DNA from: a virus | Taxonomy: Duplodnaviria > Caudoviricetes | Direction: 5' to 3' (one strand) | Virus record (IMG/VR): IMGVR_UViG_3300015607_004069 | Location: 117,659-181,658 of that record | Length of the DNA stretch: 64,000 bases | In this document: positions 346-38,329 of the stretch, one piece after another | Layout of the letters: each line of letters starts with the position of its first letter | Position numbering within the stretch: position 1 is the first letter of the stretch | Position numbers and translations under genes: made by a program | Notes under the pieces: generated by a model | Told to the model about the DNA's origin: nothing | Database searches by the model: none | The model's input: only the letters and a program-made list of their open reading frames with translations

Positions 346-3300
346 ATGCCAACAGACGTATACAATTCATCTACAACATGGGTCTGTCCAACCGGTGTAA
401 CATCTGTTGATGTAGAATGCTGGGGCGGTGGTGGTGCTGCTGGTGCTCCTACTACTAAAGGCACTACTGGTGCCGGTGGTGGTGGAGCCTACAGTAAGAA
501 GCTAGCTATTTCGGTGACACCCGGAAATAGCTACACAGTCACAGTTGGGGTTGGGGGTGATGGCGATACATTTACGCCCGGTGGTGACAGCTGGTTCAGC
601 ACCAGCGGCACGGTCCTAGCTAAAGGTGGAACAAACGGTGATGATACTGGCACAACATTATTAGGAGGTGCTGGTGGTCTTGCCTCAGGTGGTGTCGGTG
701 ATACTAAATATTCTGGTGGTAATGGTGGCAATGGAAGTAATGATAAAGACATAGGCGGTCCCGGTGGAGGAAGCTCTGCTGGCACCGGTGCCAATGGAAA
801 TAATGGTGCAAACGGCGCTGCTGCTGGCGTTATTGGTTCAGGCGGTGCCGCTCCGACCGGTGGTGGCAAGGGTGGCGACGGTGGTCGATCTGATGCTTCA
901 ATAATCGCGGAAAATGGATCAGCGCCTGGCGGTGGCGGTGGTGGCGGCGACGGCGGAGTCTCGAACAATGGCAGTGGAGCTAATGGTCGAGTTTCTATCA
1001 CTTATATTGCGGCACCACAGGTAACAGTTAGTGATTCCATTGGTTCTCAAACAGCAACCTCTAGATTGTCGAATGCTTTTCGATCTATCGCAGAATTATT
1101 AATATCATCTGATTTTGCTAATGGTGGCATCCAAGCAATCATAAATTATCGATTCAATTATCGCGGAGACATTCGTAGATTATGGAATATTTCGTTCTTA
1201 TTAATAGATGACGATTATATGATGCCCACGGCAGGTGGGGCATCAGGAGGTGTTTTCAATGTCAATACATCAGATAGTCTAGCCTTCACTGACAATTTTT
1301 CCAGATTAGTTCTTCTTTACAGAGTATTTATCGATAATTTGGCTTTTGTCGATAATATTTCTAGGTTAACTGTTAGCTATAGAACATTCGCTGACAATCT
1401 TGCATTGGCTGAATCGGTAAAGACTACCACCAATTATTTCAGATCTGCTTTTGATAACTTGGGCCATACGGAAACAGTTCGCAAATTAGCCAACGTCTCT
1501 CGGTCTATTCTTGACAATATAGCTCTTTCTGATCGCGATCTGTTGTCTCAAGGTATGCTTGGCAACATGCTGGGCGAGATGCTTGGCGACATGCTAGGTG
1601 GCACCTCCTATGCCCCTAGTGTATTTATAAAGACTAGCTATTTTAGGTCATTAACTGATTCATTAGGCGAACAAGATTCTGTCAGCAGGCTGATTGCCGT
1701 TTACCGCTTTATAGCCGAATCAATAGCCTTGATTGATCAAGTATCAAGAAGTCAGCAATTTGCTACAACAATTTCTGACAATTTAGGTGAGCAAGACGCA
1801 GTCAGCAGAATTGTTTCTTATCTTAGATCTATCATTGATAATTTGGGGTTGTCTGATTTTGCTACAGCCGTTATTCAATTTAGTAGTACAACCTATAATG
1901 TTTCAGTTATTGATTCATTAGCATTTAGTGATCTAATTGTCAGGATGGTGACTGCCTTCAGATTTACTTCTGATTTGCTGGTTCAAATCGACACTACAGG
2001 CAGGCTCGTTAATGCTTTCAGGTCTGTCTCTGACGTATTGGCTGAAATCGATGCGACCAACAGATTTGTCAATACCTTTAGATCAGTATTTGATAATATT
2101 AATGCTCAAGATGCAACTGCTAGAATACTAAATGCCTTAAGATCTGTATCTGATAGCATTGGCATTCAGGATACGACCAGCAAGCTATTAACAGCCTTCA
2201 GAACTTTATCTGATAATATTAGATTTCAAGATGCGTCTAGTCGATTAGCCAATGCTTTTAGGTCGATTGCTGATGATATAGATGTGCAGGATATCACTAG
2301 TCGTTTAGCTAATACTCTCAGACGATTTGCCGATAATCTTGGTATTCAAGATGCTACCAATGCTGGCGTTGCCAGATTATATAATATTCTGACTTCCGAC
2401 AATTTAGGTGAACAGGATGCATTTTATCGTCTGGCAAATGCAGCTAGAACCATCGCCGATGGTTTAGTGTCAACCGATCAGGCATCAAGGCTGGTAGCAT
2501 CGGCGCGGCTTTTGTTAGATTTATTGGCTGAATCTGATTCTACACAGACTTTGACGAACTCCTTTAGATCGCTGGTTGACAATTTAAATGTCATTGATAA
2601 TGTGTTTCGAAAGTCAGACGCTCTTAGGTTATCATCGTCGAATCTCGGATCTGCCGATCTAGTAACGCGATCTACTTCTGTCTTCAGATCTATTACTGAT
2701 TCGATAATCATATCTGATTTGGCATTGGTAAAATCGACCTTATCCAGATTAGTGTCTGATAATGTAGCTGAGCAGGACTCTACTTCTAGAATCGTTCTGG
2801 TTGAAAGAAGGTTAAGCGATCTTATAGTAGAGACTGATGCTGCGACACGTCAAGCCAATACAGCTCGTTCTACTTCTGATTTCATAGCAGAAACCGATAC
2901 TATAACACGTAAATCTGATGCTGCTCGATTGGCTTCAGACTTCCTAGTAGAAACTGACGCTGCTTCGCGTAAAGCTGACGCTTTCAGATCTGTTTCTGAT
3001 GTTTTGGGTATTCGTGATAGTGTTGATAGATTATCTAATGCTTTAAGATCTATTTCTGATCTTCTTCGTATTATTGATATAGCTACGCCTTTAGGCACTT
3101 TTACATTATCTATTTCAGTACAGGAATCTCTCGGTTTAACCGACAGCGTTTCCAGAAGGGTTAATGCTCTAAGATTGCTCTCTGATAGCATCGGTGTGGC
3201 TGATACCACTAAGACGATTTCTGCTATTTTTAGACTCACTTCTGATATTATCGGTTTGACTGATTCATTGAGTCGTGTAGCCACTAGTTTCAGAGCTGTC

Positions 3301-4134
3301 AGTGATTCGATTCGTATCACCGATTCTGCCAATACATCTGTTGTTTATTCAAGATTAATCAATGAACAAATTGGTCTGTTTAATGCGTTTAGTAGACTCG
3401 TCCAATCATTTAGATCGGTATCTGACAATTTTGCGTTGACTGATGTACTTAATAGGCAGCTGGCACTCAGAATTTCACTTAGCGAAATTCTAGGCGTAGC
3501 CGATAATATTCTGAATAAGACGCTGCTCTTTAGGCTGATGTCCGATCTCATAGCGGAAAGCGACTCAGTTTCGAAGAGAATAGATGCTCGAAGATCGGTT
3601 CAAGACAATCTAGCGTTGTCTACTAATACATCTAGAATAGCCAACGCATTTAGAGCTATAAGCGATCAATTGTCAGAAACTGATGCGGTATCAAAAGCAG
3701 TCAGTTACAACAAATTGATTTCAGAACTGATAAAAGCTGCTGACAATATACTGATTCAAACTAATACCAGACGATCAGTATCTGACTCAGTTTCTATGGT
3801 TGATCTGACTGGGATTTTCTTATCTGTCAGAAGAGCAATTGTAGAGTCGATTGGTGTTTCTGATTCGACGTTTAGAGTTTCAAACGCTATCAGATCCATA
3901 TTTGATACTATTAACATCACCGATAGTGTTAGTAAGTCAATTCATATTGGCAGATTGGCTGTCGATAATATTGGTCTGTTGACAGAGGTCTATAAAACTG
4001 CAGAATACCATCGCTTGATGAGCAGTATGATAGGGATTGAAGATGAAATGTTTACGGAAGTGATAAATCTGTCATTAGCAGTTGGCGTGTTTTATATTCT
4101 TGACACCCCTGATGCTTGGGGAGGTCTTTTCTAA
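346..4134 (+). CDS. virion structural/tail-associated protein: N-terminal glycine-rich domain plus long array of ~20-aa repeats
   Basis: N-terminus WVCPTGVTSVDVECWGGGGA...GGGGAYSKK...VTPGNSYTVTVG is a typical phage Gly-rich domain; the rest is 20-aa repeats such as FRSVSDVLAEIDATNRFVNT/FRSVFDNINAQDATARILNA. Confidence 0.75.
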   Translation: MPTDVYNSSTTWVCPTGVTSVDVECWGGGGAAGAPTTKGTTGAGGGGAYSKKLAISVTPGNSYTVTVGVGGDGDTFTPGGDSWFSTSGTVLAKGGTNGDDTGTTLLGGAGGLASGGVGDTKYSGGNGGNGSNDKDIGGPGGGSSAGTGANGNNGANGAAAGVIGSGGAAPTGGGKGGDGGRSDASIIAENGSAPGGGGGGGDGGVSNNGSGANGRVSITYIAAPQVTVSDSIGSQTATSRLSNAFRSIAELLISSDFANGGIQAIINYRFNYRGDIRRLWNISFLLIDDDYMMPTAGGASGGVFNVNTSDSLAFTDNFSRLVLLYRVFIDNLAFVDNISRLTVSYRTFADNLALAESVKTTTNYFRSAFDNLGHTETVRKLANVSRSILDNIALSDRDLLSQGMLGNMLGEMLGDMLGGTSYAPSVFIKTSYFRSLTDSLGEQDSVSRLIAVYRFIAESIALIDQVSRSQQFATTISDNLGEQDAVSRIVSYLRSIIDNLGLSDFATAVIQFSSTTYNVSVIDSLAFSDLIVRMVTAFRFTSDLLVQIDTTGRLVNAFRSVSDVLAEIDATNRFVNTFRSVFDNINAQDATARILNALRSVSDSIGIQDTTSKLLTAFRTLSDNIRFQDASSRLANAFRSIADDIDVQDITSRLANTLRRFADNLGIQDATNAGVARLYNILTSDNLGEQDAFYRLANAARTIADGLVSTDQASRLVASARLLLDLLAESDSTQTLTNSFRSLVDNLNVIDNVFRKSDALRLSSSNLGSADLVTRSTSVFRSITDSIIISDLALVKSTLSRLVSDNVAEQDSTSRIVLVERRLSDLIVETDAATRQANTARSTSDFIAETDTITRKSDAARLASDFLVETDAASRKADAFRSVSDVLGIRDSVDRLSNALRSISDLLRIIDIATPLGTFTLSISVQESLGLTDSVSRRVNALRLLSDSIGVADTTKTISAIFRLTSDIIGLTDSLSRVATSFRAVSDSIRITDSANTSVVYSRLINEQIGLFNAFSRLVQSFRSVSDNFALTDVLNRQLALRISLSEILGVADNILNKTLLFRLMSDLIAESDSVSKRIDARRSVQDNLALSTNTSRIANAFRAISDQLSETDAVSKAVSYNKLISELIKAADNILIQTNTRRSVSDSVSMVDLTGIFLSVRRAIVESIGVSDSTFRVSNAIRSIFDTINITDSVSKSIHIGRLAVDNIGLLTEVYKTAEYHRLMSSMIGIEDEMFTEVINLSLAVGVFYILDTPDAWGGLF
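1552..1599 (+). repeat. 12-bp tandem repeat encoding (MLGx)4
   Basis: ggtatgcttggcaacatgctgggcgagatgcttggcgacatgctaggt = GMLGNMLGEMLGDMLG. Confidence 0.8.
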
Positions 4135-13856: not shown

Positions 13857-15458
13857 ATGAATACTATGTTTCATAATGCCAGAGTTTCTTTTGCTATCTG
13901 CACACCCATGGCGAAAGTGACCAATCCTCATGGCGTGTTGATGTTCGACACATTGACACCGGAATGGCATAGAGCACGAGCCAGTCTAGCCATGCCTACC
14001 AACATCAATCTGGTAGAACTTTTAGCCGATGGTATGGAAGTCGGCGATGCCCGTTCAAAGATCGCCAAACTGTGTCTGGAAAGCAAACCAATACCAGAAT
14101 TCTTATTCTTCTTAGATTCTGACGTTATCGTCCCATCAGATGCCTTGACCAAACTATTTTACAATGCCAGATGTTATCCAGACTACGATGTCTATGCTGG
14201 CGTTTATTGCTCTAAGACCAATCCACCAGAACCATTGATCTATGGAGACAATGGCACAGGAGCCATCTGGGATTGGGCAGTAGGCGATCTGCTCATGGAC
14301 GGCAGAGTGAAAAGCGTCCATATGGGTCTGACACTGATTAGAACCAGTGCCTTCCGGAAGCTTCTGGATTCTGGCCTTGTCCATGGTACAGGGGATGACC
14401 AAGAAGACGAGCCGTTCTTCAAAACAGTCAATGAGACTGAATTTGTCAATGGCAATAACCTGCTCAAGCGAGGAACAGAGGACATTTACTTCTGTGATAA
14501 GCTTATAAAGGCTGGCGGCAAAATATTCGTCAATACCGGAGTGTTAGCCGCCCATCACTGTCGGACCACAGGCATAATGTATGGTCTTCCGGTCGATAAG
14601 ACCAATAACCCATTTAGACGCGCCAAATGGATGAAGGATGGCGACAAGACTCAGGATGTTCAGGAAGCCGAGAATCTGATCTACGAAGGGCCTTGTGAAT
14701 GTGTCAAATATCTGACTAATGAAACGGAATTTCCAGAACAATATAAGCAGCTGGACAATTCAACGCTTTGCCTTGAAAATTGCGTTGACTGTAAAGGCAC
14801 TGGCCATGTCAAAAGGCCATATAAGATAGCTATCGATATTGGAGCCGGTGATACGCGCAGAGAATGGCCGGGTTATAAGACTTACACTACTGATATTCGT
14901 AGCGATTCCAAGCCTGATTATGTTCAGGATTCACGTGCTCTAACGCTGCCAAATAACCATTTTGATCTAGTGGCAAGCTCACACCATCTAGAGCATATTG
15001 GCCGATGGGATCAGGAAAAAGTCTGGAAGGAAATGTTTAAAATCTGCAAGCCCGGTGGCAGAATTGAGCATGTCGTTCCTAATATACAATGGGCCGCTGC
15101 CTCCATTATGGAGAACAACATAGACGAGCACGTCATGAATGTCATTTATGGAGCACAGGAGGCTCATGGATATGCTCGTGAATTCAATACTCATTTCTTC
15201 GGCTATACCCCTGAGTTAGCTAAGGCACTGGCAAGATCAGTCGGATTCGTTGATGTAGAAACTGGAGACTGGCGACAGAATCCCAAGTTAGGTTATAACC
15301 TCCTGATAAAAGGTCGTAAGCCTTATCCCGATGAAGTAGTCAAAGACACAGTAGTCATGAAAGCCAGAAAACAGGAAGAAAAGGATAAAAAGAAAGAAAA
15401 AGAGCCAGAAAAAACAGATCAGAAACCAAGCCGGTCCAGAAGATCAGCAGCAAAATAA
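13857..15458 (+). CDS. GT-A fold glycosyltransferase fused to class I SAM-dependent methyltransferase
   Basis: FFLDSD (DxD), GLTLIR, EDIYFC in the N-half; IDIGAG, SHHLEH, CKPGGRI in the C-half; Cys-rich linker. Confidence 0.85.
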   Translation: MNTMFHNARVSFAICTPMAKVTNPHGVLMFDTLTPEWHRARASLAMPTNINLVELLADGMEVGDARSKIAKLCLESKPIPEFLFFLDSDVIVPSDALTKLFYNARCYPDYDVYAGVYCSKTNPPEPLIYGDNGTGAIWDWAVGDLLMDGRVKSVHMGLTLIRTSAFRKLLDSGLVHGTGDDQEDEPFFKTVNETEFVNGNNLLKRGTEDIYFCDKLIKAGGKIFVNTGVLAAHHCRTTGIMYGLPVDKTNNPFRRAKWMKDGDKTQDVQEAENLIYEGPCECVKYLTNETEFPEQYKQLDNSTLCLENCVDCKGTGHVKRPYKIAIDIGAGDTRREWPGYKTYTTDIRSDSKPDYVQDSRALTLPNNHFDLVASSHHLEHIGRWDQEKVWKEMFKICKPGGRIEHVVPNIQWAAASIMENNIDEHVMNVIYGAQEAHGYAREFNTHFFGYTPELAKALARSVGFVDVETGDWRQNPKLGYNLLIKGRKPYPDEVVKDTVVMKARKQEEKDKKKEKEPEKTDQKPSRSRRSAAK

Positions 15459-15475
15459 GGCCTGATTTGACACTA

Positions 15476-15513
15476 AAAGAGGTGTCTTTCATTATAACGA
15501 AAGACACCTCTTT
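15476..15513. terminator. bidirectional terminator between convergent genes
   Basis: aaagaggtgtctttc/gaaagacacctcttt 15-bp stem. Confidence 0.8.
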
Positions 15514-15530
15514 CCATATAGGATTTGAAA

Positions 15531-15977
15531 CTATTTGATATAATGCGAGATCAGAATACCATTCAGGTGGTCCATCTCATGGTTGAAAATGCGGCTTCGA
15601 AGACCAGCCAACTGAGTTTTCTTAACCTTCCCGTCCTTCATGCAATAGTATGAGAAGGCTGTGTTGACAGGACGCGATATACTAGCCGTCATACCCGGAA
15701 GAGACAAACAAGCTTCATTGCCCATAGTCTGTTTGTAGGATGTGCTCGTTATTTCTGGATTGATGAAGATAGAAATGCTATTGTCAGCCATCATAACGCC
15801 CAATATACGCTGATCTATGCCAATCTGGTTGGCCGCTAGACCATAGGCCTTGTGTTCTCTGATAGTCTCAATAATGTCAGAGATAAGTGGATTTAAATGG
15901 TCTGGAGAGAAATCAGTGACTGGATCTATCATCTTAACCAGTAACGGATTTGGATGGATAATAATATCACGTGGCAT
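15531..15977 (-). CDS. def: peptide deformylase (short phage type)
   Basis: GLAANQIG, EACLS, HEMDHLNG motifs; ends soon after the third motif. Confidence 0.92.
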   Translation of the reverse strand: MPRDIIIHPNPLLVKMIDPVTDFSPDHLNPLISDIIETIREHKAYGLAANQIGIDQRILGVMMADNSISIFINPEITSTSYKQTMGNEACLSLPGMTASISRPVNTAFSYYCMKDGKVKKTQLAGLRSRIFNHEMDHLNGILISHYIK

Positions 15978-16038
15978 CTATCGTTTCCTCATGGTGTTAT
16001 ATGATACATAAGTTACAAACCTGAACAACGAGGTATTT

Positions 16039-16371
16039 ATGACTGATTTGAAAAAATTCGCTGACTATCTTATTGAAATAGCAGAAGCACAGCCAGAAGC
16101 GACATTAGGCCAGATGCAGCTTATATTAAACAGGTTTGAACCGGCTGTGTCTGCTTCGGCATTTAAAGTATTGGTTCCAAGCGTCTGTGCATGGCAAGCA
16201 GTCTGGGATAAATGCGTCCAACTGGGTCTGAATTCAACAGACAAGACTGATTCTGGTAAATTAGTATGCGACTTCATTGACAAGCTACACTCTGCTGCAA
16301 AGAGTCAAGTCGGCCAGTGTGAAAACGCAAATCAGATTAAATCGAATTTGGAGCGAGAAAATGCGGCATAA
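16039..16371 (+). CDS. hypothetical protein
   Basis: RBS gaggt, 110 aa. Confidence 0.6.
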   Translation: MTDLKKFADYLIEIAEAQPEATLGQMQLILNRFEPAVSASAFKVLVPSVCAWQAVWDKCVQLGLNSTDKTDSGKLVCDFIDKLHSAAKSQVGQCENANQIKSNLERENAA

Positions 16372-17113
16372 ACTTCTCATCATGGCCGCTGTTCATCAGG
16401 GAGATATAAAATTCATCCACACGAAATTGAATAATATAGCTCGTCAGAAAGACATCGAACTAGCTCATGTCGTCTATTTAAACAATATGAATTATGATAA
16501 TATTGGCGATATCATCACAAAACACATTGAATGTATCGACTATTCAAATAGTCATGTCATTTTCACAAAGAACATGCGTCTTTATGAAACATGGAACTAC
16601 GCCATCAAGCAATATGACTCTGAGTATATTGTCAATGCCAATGCTGATGATTTGTGGTCTGAAGATTATATTAGCAAATGCATCAAAATATTAGATGAAC
16701 AGCCAGATATCAATATAGTCACATCAAATTACTACATAACCGATGTGCCAAATCAAAGCAATAGACCATGGAAGAACATCATTGGCGATATAATGCCGCA
16801 ATATCCAGATGGAACCTTGGGACCATCCCCGATGTTCAGAAGAAGTCTGATCGACCGCTTCGGACCATATCGATCAGATCTGACAGTAGCTGGCGACGCT
16901 GAAATATGGGAACGATGGAGACAGCAGCATGCCTGTGTTTATTATCGAATACCAGAGCATGACATATTGTACTTAGCCAGAGGCGATAGTCTGGAAAGAA
17001 GAAGAGATGATAAAGGGTCGCTTTACAGTGATATTGATTCCTCTCTGATAAATGGGCCTCCTAGGGCCAAGACCATCAGAGTGGCGAGAGGCAATATTAA
17101 AAGATCATATTGA
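16361..17113 (+). CDS. family 2 (GT-A) glycosyltransferase
   Basis: LYETWNYAIK, YIVNANADD, GPSPMFRRSL, AGDAEIW; start moved to ATG 16361. Confidence 0.85.
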   Translation: MRHKLLIMAAVHQGDIKFIHTKLNNIARQKDIELAHVVYLNNMNYDNIGDIITKHIECIDYSNSHVIFTKNMRLYETWNYAIKQYDSEYIVNANADDLWSEDYISKCIKILDEQPDINIVTSNYYITDVPNQSNRPWKNIIGDIMPQYPDGTLGPSPMFRRSLIDRFGPYRSDLTVAGDAEIWERWRQQHACVYYRIPEHDILYLARGDSLERRRDDKGSLYSDIDSSLINGPPRAKTIRVARGNIKRSY

Positions 17114-17120
17114 TAAATCT

Positions 17121-17648
17121 TTAGATTTTATGAATCTTGACCTTCTTTTCAATGGGGTCCCACTTTAATCTTTTTGAATCGATCATCCCTGCTATGATCA
17201 TTTTGCTGGCCTTCACATATAACAAATTGGAAAAATTGCGGCAGGCAGGGTGTGGAACTGCTAATATTGGTCCTTCATAGACTTGTTTAATGGCATTTAA
17301 AGCCAATACGCCACAAGCAACGACTATGGAAGGCTGAATAAGCCTAATCATACTTTCCATGTGTTCGAAATCAGGCGGCACCACTGAACTCGGCGTATCC
17401 CCGACAACAGGGGTTGTATTATCAAACCAGATATCTATACCAGCTGCTTCAACTAGATCACGAATAATACGAAGACGTTTGCCTGATCGTGATTTTTCTA
17501 ACGCTTTCAACCATAATTCTCTTGGCCATTGGTCACCATAATATAACGGCGACCAAGCATTTTGCAATAAAATAATGATTTTAGCACGGTTTGAACTGTC
17601 CGGTATATCGGACGTTGACTCTGTAGCCACAATAGTCTTTCTGGTCAT
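17121..17648 (-). CDS. uracil-DNA glycosylase-like superfamily protein
   Basis: LLQNAW, SRSGKRL, PSIVVACG..A, VPHPA motifs; start uncertain because of overlap. Confidence 0.55.
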   Translation of the reverse strand: MTRKTIVATESTSDIPDSSNRAKIIILLQNAWSPLYYGDQWPRELWLKALEKSRSGKRLRIIRDLVEAAGIDIWFDNTTPVVGDTPSSVVPPDFEHMESMIRLIQPSIVVACGVLALNAIKQVYEGPILAVPHPACRNFSNLLYVKASKMIIAGMIDSKRLKWDPIEKKVKIHKI

Positions 17649-17817
17649 AGGTGTCTTTGAACAATTTGGCGGCATTTCTGTTAAGGACATAAATATATAA
17701 CTCCTCTATCTGATTGCTCTTAGGGCCAGTTCTGGACATACCGATAGTGACTGTGCCTGTTTCGAACATCTCATTGATGTCTGCAAGCAATGCGTCCGCT
17801 GCCTTTTCGATAGTCAT
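17581..17817 (-). CDS. hypothetical protein
   Basis: 78-aa ORF with protein-like composition. Confidence 0.55.
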   Translation of the reverse strand: MTIEKAADALLADINEMFETGTVTIGMSRTGPKSNQIEELYIYVLNRNAAKLFKDTYDQKDYCGYRVNVRYTGQFKPC

Positions 17818-17914
17818 TTTTCACCAATAGTGGTCGACATAGACTGAGTAGGTAGCTAACCCAGCTTCGGTCAAAGGAAGGCCATTTCTGGCATAGGTTG
17901 TTGATACGTTATGA

Positions 17915-18736
17915 TCAGATCGCCTTCAATATACCCATCAGCCGCTCATTATTGTCGAGCCAAGTTATATCAACCCACTTCAATTCACTTAATCTGTCCT
18001 GATAACGGTATAAGCTATCAATCCAAAGAGAAATATTATGCTTTGGCTGTAGTTCCGATGGTAATGACAATGATGCACAGAAAAAACCACTCCCCACATT
18101 AAAGAAGTATTCGGCTGTAGTCAGAGCACCAATGCACTGCCGTCTGGTCCACCTCTTCATATCGTCGAAACCTACAGCCCCAGCTGGCAATTTGGGCAAG
18201 GGCGTTTCTGGACTGAGCATCATTATCCTGTGAGTCAAAGCGAATTTATCGACTATCATCTGAAAGCTTTCAGCATTTGCCCAGCTCTGGCCTGATTTGA
18301 AATGCGATTCAATGGCAATGCTGCGAATACCATCGTTATATGTCCTCCGCATCCCATGTAGTTCATCATCAGTCAGATATAACTTGGGACGCTGGTTGGT
18401 GACTGTTATCCCGAATTGTTCGCCGATTTCCTTGGATGTATCAATCAGGCTGTGATTGGGGTTTGCACTCTTCAAGTGTGGAAAGTAGGAATTGGGTGTT
18501 ATTTGTCTGTACTCTTTGTAGCCATGGGCCTTGGCAGCGGCACGTCCGCCGTCTAAGCCACCGATAGGAACAATGTCATTTATGAATGGGACGTTTTGAA
18601 AGGCATCAATGCAGTGTGGCATGGTGGCGATGCCGACTGGACATCCGATTCGTTTGGAGAATTCTTCTATCAATGGCAGGCCCATGACGCAATCGCCAAA
18701 ACCATAGGCCAGTTCAATTAACAAAGTTTTGCGCAT
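17915..18736 (-). CDS. GT9 (heptosyltransferase)-like GT-B glycosyltransferase
   Basis: GFGDCVMGLPLI N-terminal motif, FQNVPFINDI, PKLYLT, FFNVGSG. Confidence 0.7.
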   Translation of the reverse strand: MRKTLLIELAYGFGDCVMGLPLIEEFSKRIGCPVGIATMPHCIDAFQNVPFINDIVPIGGLDGGRAAAKAHGYKEYRQITPNSYFPHLKSANPNHSLIDTSKEIGEQFGITVTNQRPKLYLTDDELHGMRRTYNDGIRSIAIESHFKSGQSWANAESFQMIVDKFALTHRIMMLSPETPLPKLPAGAVGFDDMKRWTRRQCIGALTTAEYFFNVGSGFFCASLSLPSELQPKHNISLWIDSLYRYQDRLSELKWVDITWLDNNERLMGILKAI

Positions 18737-32533: not shown

Positions 32534-33265
32534 CTACTTTAACATTCTAAACGCAAAATCGTCATATTCGATGCAAACATTGTTGAAGGAGAAGAACGTC
32601 TCATACTTCAAAACAGCACTGCCATCACCTCTTGGCCTGTTCACTTTGGCCGTCCACTCTTCTAGACTCTTGGTCCAATAATGATTAAGTTGAATAATAT
32701 CATATTCTGGTTCGCTTAGATAAGCACCAGCTACTTTGGTACCGGAAAAGCTATGACAGCCAGTATATGTCAGACTGAATTGATGTGGATTTATAACATT
32801 CAAAGTGTACTCTGGCTGCACAAGGCATTTAACATGTCTGGCTTCTGTAATCTTGGCCCATGCTGTATATGATTCAACTACCCTGCCGGGTGGTTTTTTG
32901 ATCCAGCCGCTATTACCAAACATCTTCCATGACATGGCCAAAGCACTGCTATTGTGTCGATATTTTAAAAGCTGCTTGAGGGGACTTTTTGGCACAATGA
33001 ATTCATCTATATCGATAAATCCAAGCCACTGCGTGGAAGATCCATATCGCATCAGGCAATGGTCATAAGCTGCAAGCTGACTATGCAGGCCTACAAAGGA
33101 TTCAACTGTTACATCTGGCGATGCGGGATAACCACATCCAAGATTGTCATAAATGAAAAAGTGATCTACGCCAATCATGCGGTGCCAGTCTAACCATTCT
33201 GGCACATACTCTGGTTCATTGGTGAAGAGACAAAGACTGAGATTGAATTTCATTTTAGCTCGCAC
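32534..33265 (-). CDS. glycosyltransferase family 92-like protein
   Basis: NEPEYVPEWLDWH..IGVDHFFIYDN, WLGFIDIDEFI, LNHYWTKS. Confidence 0.85.
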   Translation of the reverse strand: MRAKMKFNLSLCLFTNEPEYVPEWLDWHRMIGVDHFFIYDNLGCGYPASPDVTVESFVGLHSQLAAYDHCLMRYGSSTQWLGFIDIDEFIVPKSPLKQLLKYRHNSSALAMSWKMFGNSGWIKKPPGRVVESYTAWAKITEARHVKCLVQPEYTLNVINPHQFSLTYTGCHSFSGTKVAGAYLSEPEYDIIQLNHYWTKSLEEWTAKVNRPRGDGSAVLKYETFFSFNNVCIEYDDFAFRMLK

Positions 33266-33435
33266 TTACCATCTGTTTACATTAAGAATGTCACCAGTCC
33301 ACATGCTATGGATTATCAGTCCGATGCCGTAAATCACAGCACAAGCGGACTTTAAAAGATAGAGAGAACCTATAAAACAGAGAGCGGCGAGGCTAGCAAA
33401 CGTCGCCATATAAAGCGGACAAATAAATAGATAGA

Positions 33436-33762
33436 TCACTGACGCTTTGAGCATTTCCCGTTCTCCTTGTATTCCGACTGTAAAAGTGAGAAGGCACGAC
33501 ATTGAATGCATTTGCAGTCCTTGCGTGGCATTCCATTGCTGTTGATTTTGCAGGATTCGTATCTATCAACGTCTTCTGCAAGAAATTCCTGTATCAATTG
33601 TTCCAATGCAGCATTACGAATACGAAGTTGTTTTGCTTTGTTGGTGTCACCACATGACTCACAAATAGCAGTGTCGCCTATCCATTTGATAGTAGTTCTC
33701 TCAACGCAATGGCATGTCCAGAACTTTATTGCTATATTGCTAAAAACTTTATCTATATCCAT
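33436..33762 (-). CDS. hypothetical Cys-rich protein
   Basis: CxC, CxxC, CxCxxC. Confidence 0.5.
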   Translation of the reverse strand: MDIDKVFSNIAIKFWTCHCVERTTIKWIGDTAICESCGDTNKAKQLRIRNAALEQLIQEFLAEDVDRYESCKINSNGMPRKDCKCIQCRAFSLLQSEYKENGKCSKRQ

Positions 33763-33763
33763 T

Positions 33764-34018
33764 TTACTTTCCCACCTTTGTCGTATTCATCTCCAACTTA
33801 TCCAAGATGCGAATAGCCTTTTCTAACCTAGCCTTCAACATATCATCCACACACTTGGTATAAGGATCGCTGTTAAACAGTCGGATAAGTCGATTTACCA
33901 GTATTCGCTTTTTGATTTCATTCTTGCTCATGCGACACACTGAACACATAGCTTCTTCGGGCATATCGCTGGGACCGAAATCATGTGGTCCACCATCATT
34001 ACATCTTACTTGCCACAT
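33764..34018 (-). CDS. hypothetical protein
   Basis: tiles the minus-strand operon. Confidence 0.5.
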   Translation of the reverse strand: MWQVRCNDGGPHDFGPSDMPEEAMCSVCRMSKNEIKKRILVNRLIRLFNSDPYTKCVDDMLKARLEKAIRILDKLEMNTTKVGK

Positions 34019-34036
34019 GATGATTGCCCCATGGTT

Positions 34037-34240
34037 CTAGTTACCGGGGAATACGACGTATTCGATAGTAGGCTTATCTGGCCGAGCATCAGCTACCCAT
34101 CCATCAAGTCGTGGTTCACACAACTTGAGTATACGAATTTCTTTAGGCTCCATCAGATCATACTCACTACAACACCTGTAACATACGAGTAATTTAGGAT
34201 CGAATGTCTTGAGTAGATCGATTAGTTCCTGAACAGTCAT
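34037..34240 (-). CDS. hypothetical protein (MTVQELIDLL-type phage ORFan)
   Basis: common phage small-protein N-terminus; RBS present. Confidence 0.6.
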   Translation of the reverse strand: MTVQELIDLLKTFDPKLLVCYRCCSEYDLMEPKEIRILKLCEPRLDGWVADARPDKPTIEYVVFPGN

Positions 34241-34268
34241 TTCTCACCCTTCCTTTCGCTTCTGATGG

Positions 34269-34700
34269 TTACTCTTTGGTTAGTGTTCCATCCGGCCATA
34301 CGATTACAATTGGCTTGCCGGATTTGCGAGCATAACGAATCGTCGCCCATGTGCCTGAACGCTGCTCCTCTTGCATATCTGCTGGACATGCCAATAAGGT
34401 ATTACAGTAGTCCACGATAGTTCGGTTGCGTTTCAATGGCGGTTCGGCTTCGTACACGCTATCACTTATCTTAATAGCATCGTGAGAAGTCTGATCGCTT
34501 ATATTACAGGGATAGGCGTATAATGGGATATAGCGGTCTTGATTACGAATGAGTTTAGCCATCCACGCATCGGCACCAATCGCACAACCATGAAGAAATC
34601 CAGTAAACGTATCGCCGGTAGAATTGAACCATTTGACCACAGCTTCCATCTGTGGTGGTGTCAAACCTTTTCGTGTACCAGTAAAGCCTAGATAACTCAT
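34269..34700 (-). CDS. SLOG superfamily (DprA/YspA-like) nucleotide-binding protein
   Basis: GFTGTR, HGCAIGAD, RNRTIVD, SGTWATIRYA..GKP. Confidence 0.8.
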   Translation of the reverse strand: MSYLGFTGTRKGLTPPQMEAVVKWFNSTGDTFTGFLHGCAIGADAWMAKLIRNQDRYIPLYAYPCNISDQTSHDAIKISDSVYEAEPPLKRNRTIVDYCNTLLACPADMQEEQRSGTWATIRYARKSGKPIVIVWPDGTLTKE

Positions 34701-34729
34701 TCCTGCCCCTTAGAAACCTGCTTCAGGCA

Positions 34730-34945
34730 CTAACTGACCGCTGTGATTGATTGCTTCTTGGTTTGTTTAAAGTCCTTAATATTTGGCCCTCGATAAGATG
34801 CCGGAAATCCACAGCATTTGCAATACATTGAACCTTCGATCAGACCTGCCCCACACCAACCGCATGGAATAAATACCATCATTGCTAAACCATCAAGGAA
34901 AGCGTCTATTCGTAATCTATTCGCATATGTGATTTCTTCACTCAT
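34730..34945 (-). CDS. small zinc-ribbon protein
   Basis: CGWCG...YCKCCG. Confidence 0.5.
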   Translation of the reverse strand: MSEEITYANRLRIDAFLDGLAMMVFIPCGWCGAGLIEGSMYCKCCGFPASYRGPNIKDFKQTKKQSITAVS

Positions 34946-35298
34946 CTTTTTGCCTCCGATGATAATAATTGTTTTTCCAACGCAGCGATGCGAGCACGTA
35001 ATTTGACTATAACTTCTATTAAATCCGGTGGTGGTTCATACTTTACCTGTGCGTTCTGTGACTCAAAAGTCGAGGCAGCTTGATCACATATATCCAAGAA
35101 TGGCCTAGTGAGACTTGGCGGTGCTTGCGGCACCATATCACAGCCTTTTGACATGAACTTGTATATTATTCTCCACAAAGCCGCATTCTTTTTCTGCTCT
35201 TCGACTAACTGCTTTTCCAATGCAACAATGCGAGATTGCGCAGCTATAGTACCACACTCTGGACATTCATCTATCAAATTATCATGTTTACATATCAT
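34942..35298 (-). CDS. hypothetical protein
   Basis: CxH...CPEC plus coiled coil; RIVALEKQL/RIAALEKQL repeat. Confidence 0.55.
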   Translation of the reverse strand: MICKHDNLIDECPECGTIAAQSRIVALEKQLVEEQKKNAALWRIIYKFMSKGCDMVPQAPPSLTRPFLDICDQAASTFESQNAQVKYEPPPDLIEVIVKLRARIAALEKQLLSSEAKR

Positions 35299-35337: not shown

Positions 35338-35435
35338 GTAAGATGCCAGACTGCCCACCTTTAGTAAGGATGGCATGGAGAGGTTAGCGCAAATCCCCTC
35401 ACTGACCACGCACTAATATGGTCCCGGCATCTTAC
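35338..35435 (-). ncRNA. structured RNA candidate: four-way junction with complementary loops
   Basis: closing stem of 12-13 bp plus three hairpins in a non-coding gap; G-U pairs favour the minus strand; GTATT 9 nt upstream. Confidence 0.6.
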
Positions 35436-35473
35436 CGTTCATAAAATACGATTAGAAGTTTCTTCCTTGGAAA

Positions 35474-36127
35474 CTATAGCATACAAGCATCACTTCCTAA
35501 TGAATCTAACCACTTATTAGACTTGTCTGCAATAATCTTCTCCAATTTAGTGATAGCAGTTCTTCTGTCCACGTCATTCTTAGCCATTACAGCAAAATAT
35601 AAACCGATGGCAGCGACGGCAACATCAATCGCTTCTTCCTCTACGCTACTATTGTGTCTTTTACCAGTCAATGCAGATTCGGCTAGAAATTCATTGGTCA
35701 ATTCGCCTAGTTCTGATATAACATGGTTGAATAAAGTCGAAATAGACTTGCCACGCTTCACTTCCGCATTAGCTATCCAATGTAATTTGTTGAATTGTGA
35801 AAGCTTATAAGCTAAAGTCTGTGGAACAGTTATTGAGAGATCATCAGGAAAATCAGTTCGGATCAAAAAAGATGGCACTGAATAACAATCACTGAAGCTC
35901 AATAAGAATTGGCATCTGCGGCTCTGTTTCTTTTTGGCCACTGTCCAATCATGGCCCGGCGTTGCATGTGATACAGCAAGACGTATGAGTACATCCTGAT
36001 TACGTTCGTATTTCAAAGATGTCACCATGCCACTAAAATGTTCAGAGTGGACATGAGTGCCGATGGTAAGCAGACCATCGCTTATCAATTCAAAGACATT
36101 ATCGCTTGTCAGGGACTGAAAATTCAT
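35474..36127 (-). CDS. protein with C-terminal MazG-like NTP pyrophosphohydrolase domain
   Basis: SELGELTNE...VEEEAIDVAVAA; start moved to MNFQSL. Confidence 0.6.
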   Translation of the reverse strand: MNFQSLTSDNVFELISDGLLTIGTHVHSEHFSGMVTSLKYERNQDVLIRLAVSHATPGHDWTVAKKKQSRRCQFLLSFSDCYSVPSFLIRTDFPDDLSITVPQTLAYKLSQFNKLHWIANAEVKRGKSISTLFNHVISELGELTNEFLAESALTGKRHNSSVEEEAIDVAVAAIGLYFAVMAKNDVDRRTAITKLEKIIADKSNKWLDSLGSDACML

Positions 36128-36181
36128 AATTATATCCGGTAGGCCTCGTATCACCCATAATACGGACAAGGAGGTCCACAC

Positions 36182-38042: not shown

Positions 38043-38160
38043 GTCTGGCTCCGTTGGAAAAATTGTGTTTACTGTCTGTCTGAGTCGGGTATAACACCAA
38101 AGTCGATGGCGTTAATTTCAATTGATTGCAAAGCACTCCGTTACTCTCGCGTATCCTAAA

Positions 38161-38232
38161 TGTCACTTTTCATAATTGATCCTCTGGACGATTCTTGGTT
38201 GTCTCAACGTTATGATGTATCACGAAATGACA
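38161..38232 (-). promoter_or_regulatory. long interrupted hairpin in the 5' leader of the AT-hook gene
   Basis: tgtcattt/aagtgaca, tcataa/ttatga, ttga/tcaa nested stems; GTATT at 38240-38244 (minus). Confidence 0.45.
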
Positions 38233-38329
38233 AAGGTTTAATACTGCTTACTTTGGTGTATAATAGGAGTATCCCTACTGAATTCTTATTAGACCTCAAA
38301 CCATAAGGCCATAACAACAGAGGATAAAA

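Follow-up and report, generated by a model that had tools for sequence, protein, structure and literature searches.

The 175-nt gap between two minus-strand genes in the genome of an uncultured phage raises the questions of whether it encodes a discrete structured RNA, whether such an RNA belongs to a family already described, and what it may do for the genes beside it. The analysed window is a stretch of 64,000 nt taken from an IMG/VR contig of 181,658 nt, the completeness of which is estimated at 51%. The contig carries T4-type terminase, portal and baseplate genes, and its terminase is less than 28% identical to those of the nearest cultured phages. The source is a deep-branching uncultured large myovirus.

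Sequence and fold of the element

The initial annotation had placed in this gap a four-way-junction RNA whose second loop could pair either with the third or with the fourth. The parts of the element, in window coordinates, are as follows.

35338..35435, minus strand: whole RNA element, 98 nt; four-way junction of P1–P4 with a loop–loop (kissing) helix between L2 and L3; minimum free energy structure equal to the centroid
35424..35435, minus strand: 5' strand of P1, 12 nt, pairing with 35338-35349; one G-U among the 12 bp
35404..35423, minus strand: P2 hairpin, 6-bp stem (35423-35418/35409-35404) with the 8-nt loop L2 (35417-35410)
35410..35416, minus strand: L2 half of the kiss, 7 nt, pairing with 35384-35390
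35401..35403, minus strand: J2/3, bases AGU, invariant in every lineage (alignment A2)
35378..35400, minus strand: P3 hairpin, 6-bp stem (35400-35395/35383-35378) with the 11-nt loop L3 (35394-35384)
35384..35390, minus strand: L3 half of the kiss, 7 nt, pairing with 35410-35416
35352..35375, minus strand: P4, two segments of 4 bp separated by a 2x2 internal loop and capped by a 4-nt loop
35338..35349, minus strand: 3' strand of P1, followed by a conserved UUCU at 35337-35334

The folding of the minus strand with ViennaRNA gave the four-way junction as both the minimum free energy and the centroid structure, with an energy of -42.3 kcal/mol and a z-score of -3.9, and none of the 200 dinucleotide shuffles was as stable. 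The plus strand folds worse (-32.2 kcal/mol) and loses P3. Because the imperfect pairs are G-U pairs on the minus strand, the fold is strand-specific. The sequence, the coordinates and the G-U pairs given by the initial annotation agree with the computed structure, and the flanking motifs that it reported, GTATT at 35449-35445, 9 nt ahead of P1, and UUCUU after P1, are present.

P1 passes into P2 without a linker and can be extended by a G-U pair between G35436 and U35337. The stem of P2 counts 5 bp, or 6 bp with its closing U-G pair. P2 and P3, both of 6 bp, are bound to each other by the 7-bp loop–loop helix, and P4 lies at the periphery as an arm whose length varies. The 8-nt pairing claimed for L2 and L3 holds as a conserved and covarying contact, but over 7 contiguous pairs only, the eighth being a G-U pair that competes with the closing pair of P2. 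Random loops of the same sizes and composition reached at least 7 pairs in 1.3% of the trials.

A two-codon mini-frame (UUG, one codon, UAA) lies in L3 at 35384-35392 on the minus strand, after the purine-rich strand of P3, and its middle codon carries the covarying positions of the kiss. Start–stop mini-frames are known regulators; this one is probably a coincidence.

All six reading frames are closed across the element, both in the window and in the homologues of all three lineages described below. A covariance model (R1), which scores the element of the window at 113 bits, found a single copy in the 181-kb contig. The proposal of a discrete structured RNA in a non-coding gap is borne out by the strand-specific fold and the closed frames.

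Homologues and conservation of the fold

The homologues were reached via the flanking proteins in a collection of 5.8 billion proteins, and the contigs encoding the relatives of these proteins were then inspected; the element was found there at the same place. With the R1 model, 17 occurrences were detected in about 15 metagenome assemblies, one per contig throughout. They represent four distinct sequences from three lineages. Apart from the window type, these are a population variant, the L129 type (a sister lineage) and L128, which belongs to a distant lineage. L128 is a Logan contig 128,914 nt in length, and the proteins encoded next to its element are 41–88% identical to those of the window. 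The sites from which the contigs come are represented in ENA by ERZ272828xx/ERZ27284530, ERZ22305348, SRR149325xx and DRR438477. In this farthest lineage the protein adjoining the RNA, which is MazG-like, shows 59% identity. The homologues are located as follows.

L128, 5702-5819: homologue in the distant lineage
L129, 3843-3961: homologue in the sister lineage
L136, 4693-4790; L138, 3639-3736; L140, 1116-1213: population variant, from the assemblies SRR14932535, SRR14932542 and SRR14932541

The population variant carries a G-to-A change that produces a C-A mismatch in P2, and the fold therefore tolerates some weakening in nature.

Searches based on nucleotide sequence or on short patterns did not extend this set. 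Neither the near nor the distant mode of blastn found a homologue of the region among 50,697 phage records. The search of IMG/VR for related loci returned nothing with both flanking proteins and one remote match with the terminase. A scan of IMG/VR with a pattern of the loops only gave at least 119 matches, all unrelated and mostly in coding sequence, and the patterns of conserved blocks (three searched in IMG/VR, one each in JGI metagenomes and GTDB genomes) gave chance matches only. The best of the latter, in a Sphingorhabdus MAG, scored 12.6 bits and had many pairs broken. Five contigs of distant phages, reached via a neighbouring metallophosphoesterase, contained no match to the R1 model. 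Other genes were noticed on two contigs of distant phages. L151 (SRR30642441) encodes a Ro60-like TROVE/vWA protein at 15259-18525; the next 1.4 kb or so are poor in genes and could accommodate Y-RNA-like or tRNA genes. On L150, the stretch 1116-3595 holds genes for a HicA-like toxin and a TnpB/Cas12f-like protein.

The base pairs were counted on alignment A2 under the full model, the kiss included, which comprises 161 cells. Standard pairs were present in 97.5% of the cells, compared with 31–49% when the 3' partners were slid by 1–3 columns. Changes on both sides were found at seven pairs (two in P1, one in P2, one in P3, two in the extension of P4 and one in the L2–L3 helix), and one of 500 shuffles did as well; as only four distinct sequences are available, these figures have no formal statistical power, though they agree in every helix. 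The changes from G-U to G-C or A-U occur on the minus strand only.

The 12 pairs of P1 include six that are invariant, three changed on one side and two changed on both sides, with 97.9% of the cells paired. P2 shows one double change from C-G to U-A and one change from U-G to C-G, while P3 shows one double change from G-C to A-U, one change from G-U to A-U, and an A-C mismatch in the L129 lineage. The seven pairs of the kiss are formed in 100% of the cells, with one double change from G-C to A-U and one change from U-G to U-A. The double change belongs to L128, in which a G-to-A substitution in L2 is matched by a C-to-U substitution in L3. The duplex energies of the kiss in the three lineages are -8.8, -9.2 and -7.2 kcal/mol. 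The lower stem of P4 and its 3' strand are invariant. The apex of P4 is 21 nt longer in both other lineages (L129 and L128), where it forms an extra 7-bp hairpin with two double changes and one single change; since the length of the tip differs by 21 nt between lineages, the apex appears dispensable. In the homologues, every helix is kept and the complementarity of L2 and L3 is conserved through a double change.

The differences between the window and L128 are distributed unevenly over the element: 15 of the 59 stem positions differ and 3 of the 14 positions in the kiss, compared with 1 of the 16 unpaired junction and loop positions. At the junction, AGU, CA and GU do not vary. As far as sequence comparison can tell, this pattern of change is the signature of an RNA with a recognised tertiary fold or surface, rather than of a simple hairpin. 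The identity of the window and L128 is 82% for the RNA and 86% for the 38-nt upstream spacer, compared with 75% for the neighbouring coding sequence.

The same data bear on the two readings in which L2 would have a further partner, and both of them are most improbable. In the first, the RNA would act as a conformational switch, with L2 alternating between L3 and L4, as the mutually exclusive pairings of the initial annotation implied. The complementarity of L2 and L4 over 6 pairs is present in the window, and 23 of the 24 alignment cells can still form a standard L2–L4 pair, but it is not maintained in the relatives. There is no change on both sides of this pairing, and the shuffles do as well in 500 of 500 cases. 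The G-to-A change in L2 of L128, compensated in L3, leaves a mismatch with L4; moreover, the L4 partner lies partly inside the 7-bp stem in the lineages with the long P4. The L2–L4 energy is -3.9 kcal/mol in the window and falls to -0.9 and -0.6 kcal/mol in the relatives, compared with -7.2 to -9.2 kcal/mol for L2–L3. Because L4 does not compensate for the change in L2 and the L2–L4 energy falls, a switch between two kisses is unlikely, and the fold looks static rather than switching. In the second reading, the loops would pair between molecules and form dimers or rings, as in the phi29 pRNA. The covariation of L2 and L3 would be equally expected for pairing in trans, and it does not separate one molecule from two. 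However, P2 and P3 are adjacent, of equal length and joined by a 3-nt linker, a geometry that favours an intramolecular kiss. The packaging genes are also remote, with the terminase and portal about 130 kb away, and the pRNA model gave no match.

Genomic setting

The features flanking the element are listed below.

35474..36127, minus strand: MazG-like gene, upstream; 217 aa; phrog_1247 at 1.4e-05 (C-terminal part MazG-like)
35458..35474, minus strand: small hairpin whose start lies within the MazG-like stop codon; stem of 5 bp in the window and 7 bp in L128
35443..35449, minus strand: GTATTTT, with a -10-like hexamer TATTTT ending 7 nt before P1; candidate promoter
32534..35298, minus strand: variable cassette, downstream; eight small, mostly orphan genes, including a GT92-like glycosyltransferase

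The analysis of synteny with tblastn showed that the only constant gene neighbour of the RNA is the upstream MazG-like gene, and the RNA also follows the orthologue P0002, which is 59% identical. The profile search with the MazG-like protein gave three hits among 1.84 billion representative proteins, two of them remote and partial. Its N-terminal domain of about 130 aa has no detectable relatives among the same representatives, and its AlphaFold model is of low confidence (pLDDT 53).

The downstream side is different. The counterpart of the cassette in L128 (5838-6830) consists of two unrelated genes, encoding a CxxC-rich protein of 209 aa and a DUF3307 membrane protein, and no similarity was found between the first downstream genes of the window and those of L128. 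The homology with L128 stops a few bases past P1 and UUCU and resumes before the next shared gene, the gene order being otherwise conserved. The close relatives L129, L131 and L133 also vary in the content of the cassette. Judged from these alignments, the element sits at the conserved boundary of a gene cassette that can be replaced. Many nucleotide-metabolising enzymes are encoded near the element. In L128, the GGAG of the next gene lies about 10 nt past P1, and there is therefore no room for a separate terminator. Likewise, the terminator scan found no terminator-like site after the element or inside the cassette. Occlusion of the ribosome site by the fold was considered and rejected, as the site lies outside the element.

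The GTATTTT motif of the upstream spacer is identical in the window and L128 despite the 59% identity of the neighbouring protein. The scan with a promoter consensus made no call at TATTTT, and GTATTT is enriched upstream of genes only about 2-fold. The search for a genome-wide promoter consensus based on GTATTT or TATTTAAGATA showed weak enrichment and no clear motif. The hairpin at 35458..35474 was not called as a terminator. A sequence of the form G-TATT(A/T)(A/T) is kept between the window and L128 in three intergenic regions on the minus strand, at 35445-35449, about 36150-36160 and about 38240, that is, upstream of this RNA, upstream of the MazG-like gene and where the leader of an AT-hook gene begins. 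It may be the -10 element of early-type promoters of the clade.

Two further observations concern the non-coding DNA of this region. The leader of the AT-hook/zinc-ribbon gene, of about 230 nt (window 38043-38300, minus strand; L128 2470-2725), is 83% identical between the two contigs, a conservation similar to that of coding sequence, and is probably another functional non-coding element. The element itself is bracketed by a 10-bp complementarity (35445-35454/35323-35332, minus strand), which could extend P1 if the spacer is transcribed and which is absent in L128.

Comparison with known RNAs and possible roles

The novelty of the element was judged against Rfam 15. The search of the whole window at gathering thresholds gave only a tRNA-Arg elsewhere. 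When the element and two of its homologues were searched at E-values up to 10, only chance-level matches to snoRNA and pseudoknot families appeared, far below threshold. The suspicion that the RNA matches no known class was thus confirmed for Rfam. The family is absent from that database, and its combination of a junction with a loop–loop lock is a known RNA design. Overall, the element is a genuine structured RNA, not catalogued before, that belongs to a small group of large myoviruses known only from uncultured material; we are highly confident that it is a real and conserved structured RNA carrying the L2–L3 kiss.

Several individual classes were tried and rejected. ARAGORN in default mode made no tRNA call in the element and only found the tRNA-Arg 27 kb away, while its loosest mitochondrial mode gave differing positions, strands and anticodons in the three lineages, and its intron calls were spurious. 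The tRNA cloverleaf has a 7-bp acceptor stem, conserved bases in the D and T loops and a 7-nt anticodon loop; here P1 has 12 bp, the loops are of 8, 11 and 4 nt, and the kiss joins arms 2 and 3, not 2 and 4. A CAGUC string at J4/1 recalls the hairpin ribozyme, but neither loop A nor loop B is present and there is no Rfam match. A retron, DGR or group II intron RNA was rejected, with no RVT_1 found on the contig, as was a Y RNA or YrlA, with no TROVE found on the contig (51% complete) and no Y-RNA match in Rfam. A purine-type aptamer shares the L2–L3 kiss, but the junction here is four-way and RF00167 was not matched. A phi29-like pRNA was likewise rejected on the four-way junction, the absence of a match to RF00044 and the distance of about 130 kb to the terminase and portal.

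In architecture, the closest likeness is to the aptamer of the purine riboswitch (Rfam RF00167) and, more loosely, to the lysine riboswitch. A junction, parallel arms and an L2–L3 lock form the established architecture of the purine riboswitch. There too, neighbouring hairpins of equal length stand side by side and are locked through L2 and L3, the junction bases are more conserved than the stems, and the position is that of a leader, which here would follow from the candidate promoter. However, RF00167 has three arms and the element four, the kiss of the former consists of two G-C pairs and base quadruples compared with 7 Watson–Crick pairs here, and none of its conserved bases occurs in the element, which gives no Rfam match at E up to 10.

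Three phage systems offer further comparisons. The put RNA of HK022 (putL) acts in cis and binds RNA polymerase just downstream of an early promoter; its two stem-loops are arranged as a V and include a short triple helix (PMC9378689). Like the element, it is a folded phage RNA of 70-120 nt; it is made at the start of an early-type unit and acts independently of the following genes, as is proposed here. Its shape is unlike the kiss-bearing four-way junction, the cassette showed no terminators, and the likeness is one of position. The PeSL (promoter-stem-loop) cassettes of T4-type phages combine a short hairpin with a promoter and are repeated many times per genome (PMC2839356, PMC4122927). In the present locus, too, a non-coding module made of a small hairpin over a stop codon and a -10-like motif stands exactly at the border of a swapped gene region. 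In contrast to PeSL, an extra structured RNA of 98-119 nt is present, and neither the spacer motif nor the RNA has a second copy in the 181-kb contig (about 51% complete). The prohead RNA of phi29 (Rfam RF00044; PMC5066667) is likewise encoded by a phage, measures about 120 nt and has a helical junction and two loops complementary to each other, but its junction is three-way, its loops form pairs exclusively between molecules and it is linked with the packaging motor. As a leader, the element would resemble put RNA in its logic; it resembles PeSL in its genomic position, and is a member of neither.

We tentatively prefer, at a little short of an even chance, the explanation that the element is a cis-acting 5' leader domain of the cassette transcript, independent of the genes that follow and recognised by some factor. 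Transcription would start about 7 nt past TATTTT, and P1 would close the extreme 5' end of the transcript entering the replaceable cassette. The rigid shape would then be recognised by RNA polymerase, a ribonuclease, a phage or host protein, or a small ligand, and this recognition would set how much of the cassette transcript survives or extends, through stability, processing or read-through. The leader is proposed to be gene-independent because the downstream genes differ, the RNA and its unpaired bases are conserved and the downstream start sites lie outside the fold. This explanation is consistent with the conservation of GTATTTT 7–9 nt upstream and of similar motifs ahead of two other genes, with the replacement of the cassette directly downstream while the RNA is kept, and with the absence of a terminator after the element. 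We infer from the spacer motif that the RNA has its own promoter and thus a 5'-terminal position in the cassette transcript. On the other side, TATTTT was not called by the promoter scan and the enrichment of GTATTT is about 2-fold; the sole constant partner lies upstream, which fits a 3' element or an RNA–protein pair equally well. Moreover, the U-rich tail after P1 (5–6 U in 8 nt) could end a discrete small RNA, and the cassette has no terminators for an antiterminator to overcome.

The main competitor is a small non-coding RNA that stands alone: its transcription would start from the TATTTT promoter and stop at P1 with the U-rich tail, and it would act in trans, perhaps by binding a protein as a decoy or scaffold, or by partnering the MazG-like protein. 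It is a possible reading, held with less confidence than the leader. The ends of the element pair with each other over 12–13 bp, as in many stable small RNAs, UUCU is conserved past P1, the RNA is kept regardless of the downstream genes and always adjoins the MazG-like gene, and its near-invariant junction and loop bases suggest specific recognition. However, the loop closed by P1 is multi-branched and C or A residues break up the tail, which makes a poor intrinsic terminator, and none was called; the position of the L128 ribosome site, about 10 nt past P1, means that read-through seems to be needed for the next gene. The constant upstream neighbour would equally suit a 3' element of the MazG-like mRNA, a protective structure or an unusual terminator inherited together with the gene, after which the cassette begins. 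The end of the homology directly past P1 and UUCU agrees with this, as does the 10-bp pairing of the window (35454-35445/35332-35323), which can extend P1 if the spacer is transcribed. Such a role is nevertheless decidedly unlikely. The conserved GTATTTT between the stop codon and P1 is unpaired in L128 and the 10-bp extension is absent there, and the spacer therefore resembles a DNA signal rather than a part of the RNA; a plain stabiliser would need neither invariant junction bases nor a covarying kiss. Lower still do we rate a ligand-sensing aptamer or riboswitch, in which parallel P2 and P3 would hold a junction pocket, as in purine riboswitches, and gate the cassette. The junction with equal neighbouring arms locked by the kiss, the invariant AGU, CA and GU, the putative leader position and the nucleotide-metabolising enzymes nearby are in its favour, but the downstream genes of the window and L128 are unrelated, and riboswitches normally precede genes tied to their ligand. 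The 12-bp P1 is very stable, and no conserved alternative pairing with the flanks that could serve as an expression platform was found, nor any Rfam riboswitch match at E up to 10. Finally, a self-cleaving ribozyme, a tRNA-like element or a single-stranded DNA signal is very improbable. The fold of the junction is compact, and a single-stranded DNA signal would also tolerate same-strand G-T wobbles; however, the Rfam families were not matched, the ARAGORN calls were inconsistent across lineages, the core motifs of the hammerhead, twister and hairpin ribozymes are not visible, and neither a reverse transcriptase nor a Ro-like protein was found on the contig.

A further reading is conceivable, though we consider it unlikely: the kiss-locked junction may be a sensor domain that binds a small molecule or a host or phage protein, the ligand being, for example, a nucleotide or a defence-related signalling nucleotide, and that gates a rapidly evolving accessory or counter-defence cassette of a giant phage, whatever its genes. 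If this is true, it would represent a new class of aptamer or riboregulator, with a logic not tied to one pathway.

The distribution of the element is narrow, and the new family adds to the unexplained structured RNAs of large uncultured phages. Its length of 98 nt, the dispensable tip of P4 and a kiss that designed mutations can disrupt and re-form make it tractable for probing, crystallography, cryo-EM scaffolding and reporter assays. Its position at the fixed edge of a swapped cassette points to gene-independent control or recognition rather than to a pathway-specific riboswitch.
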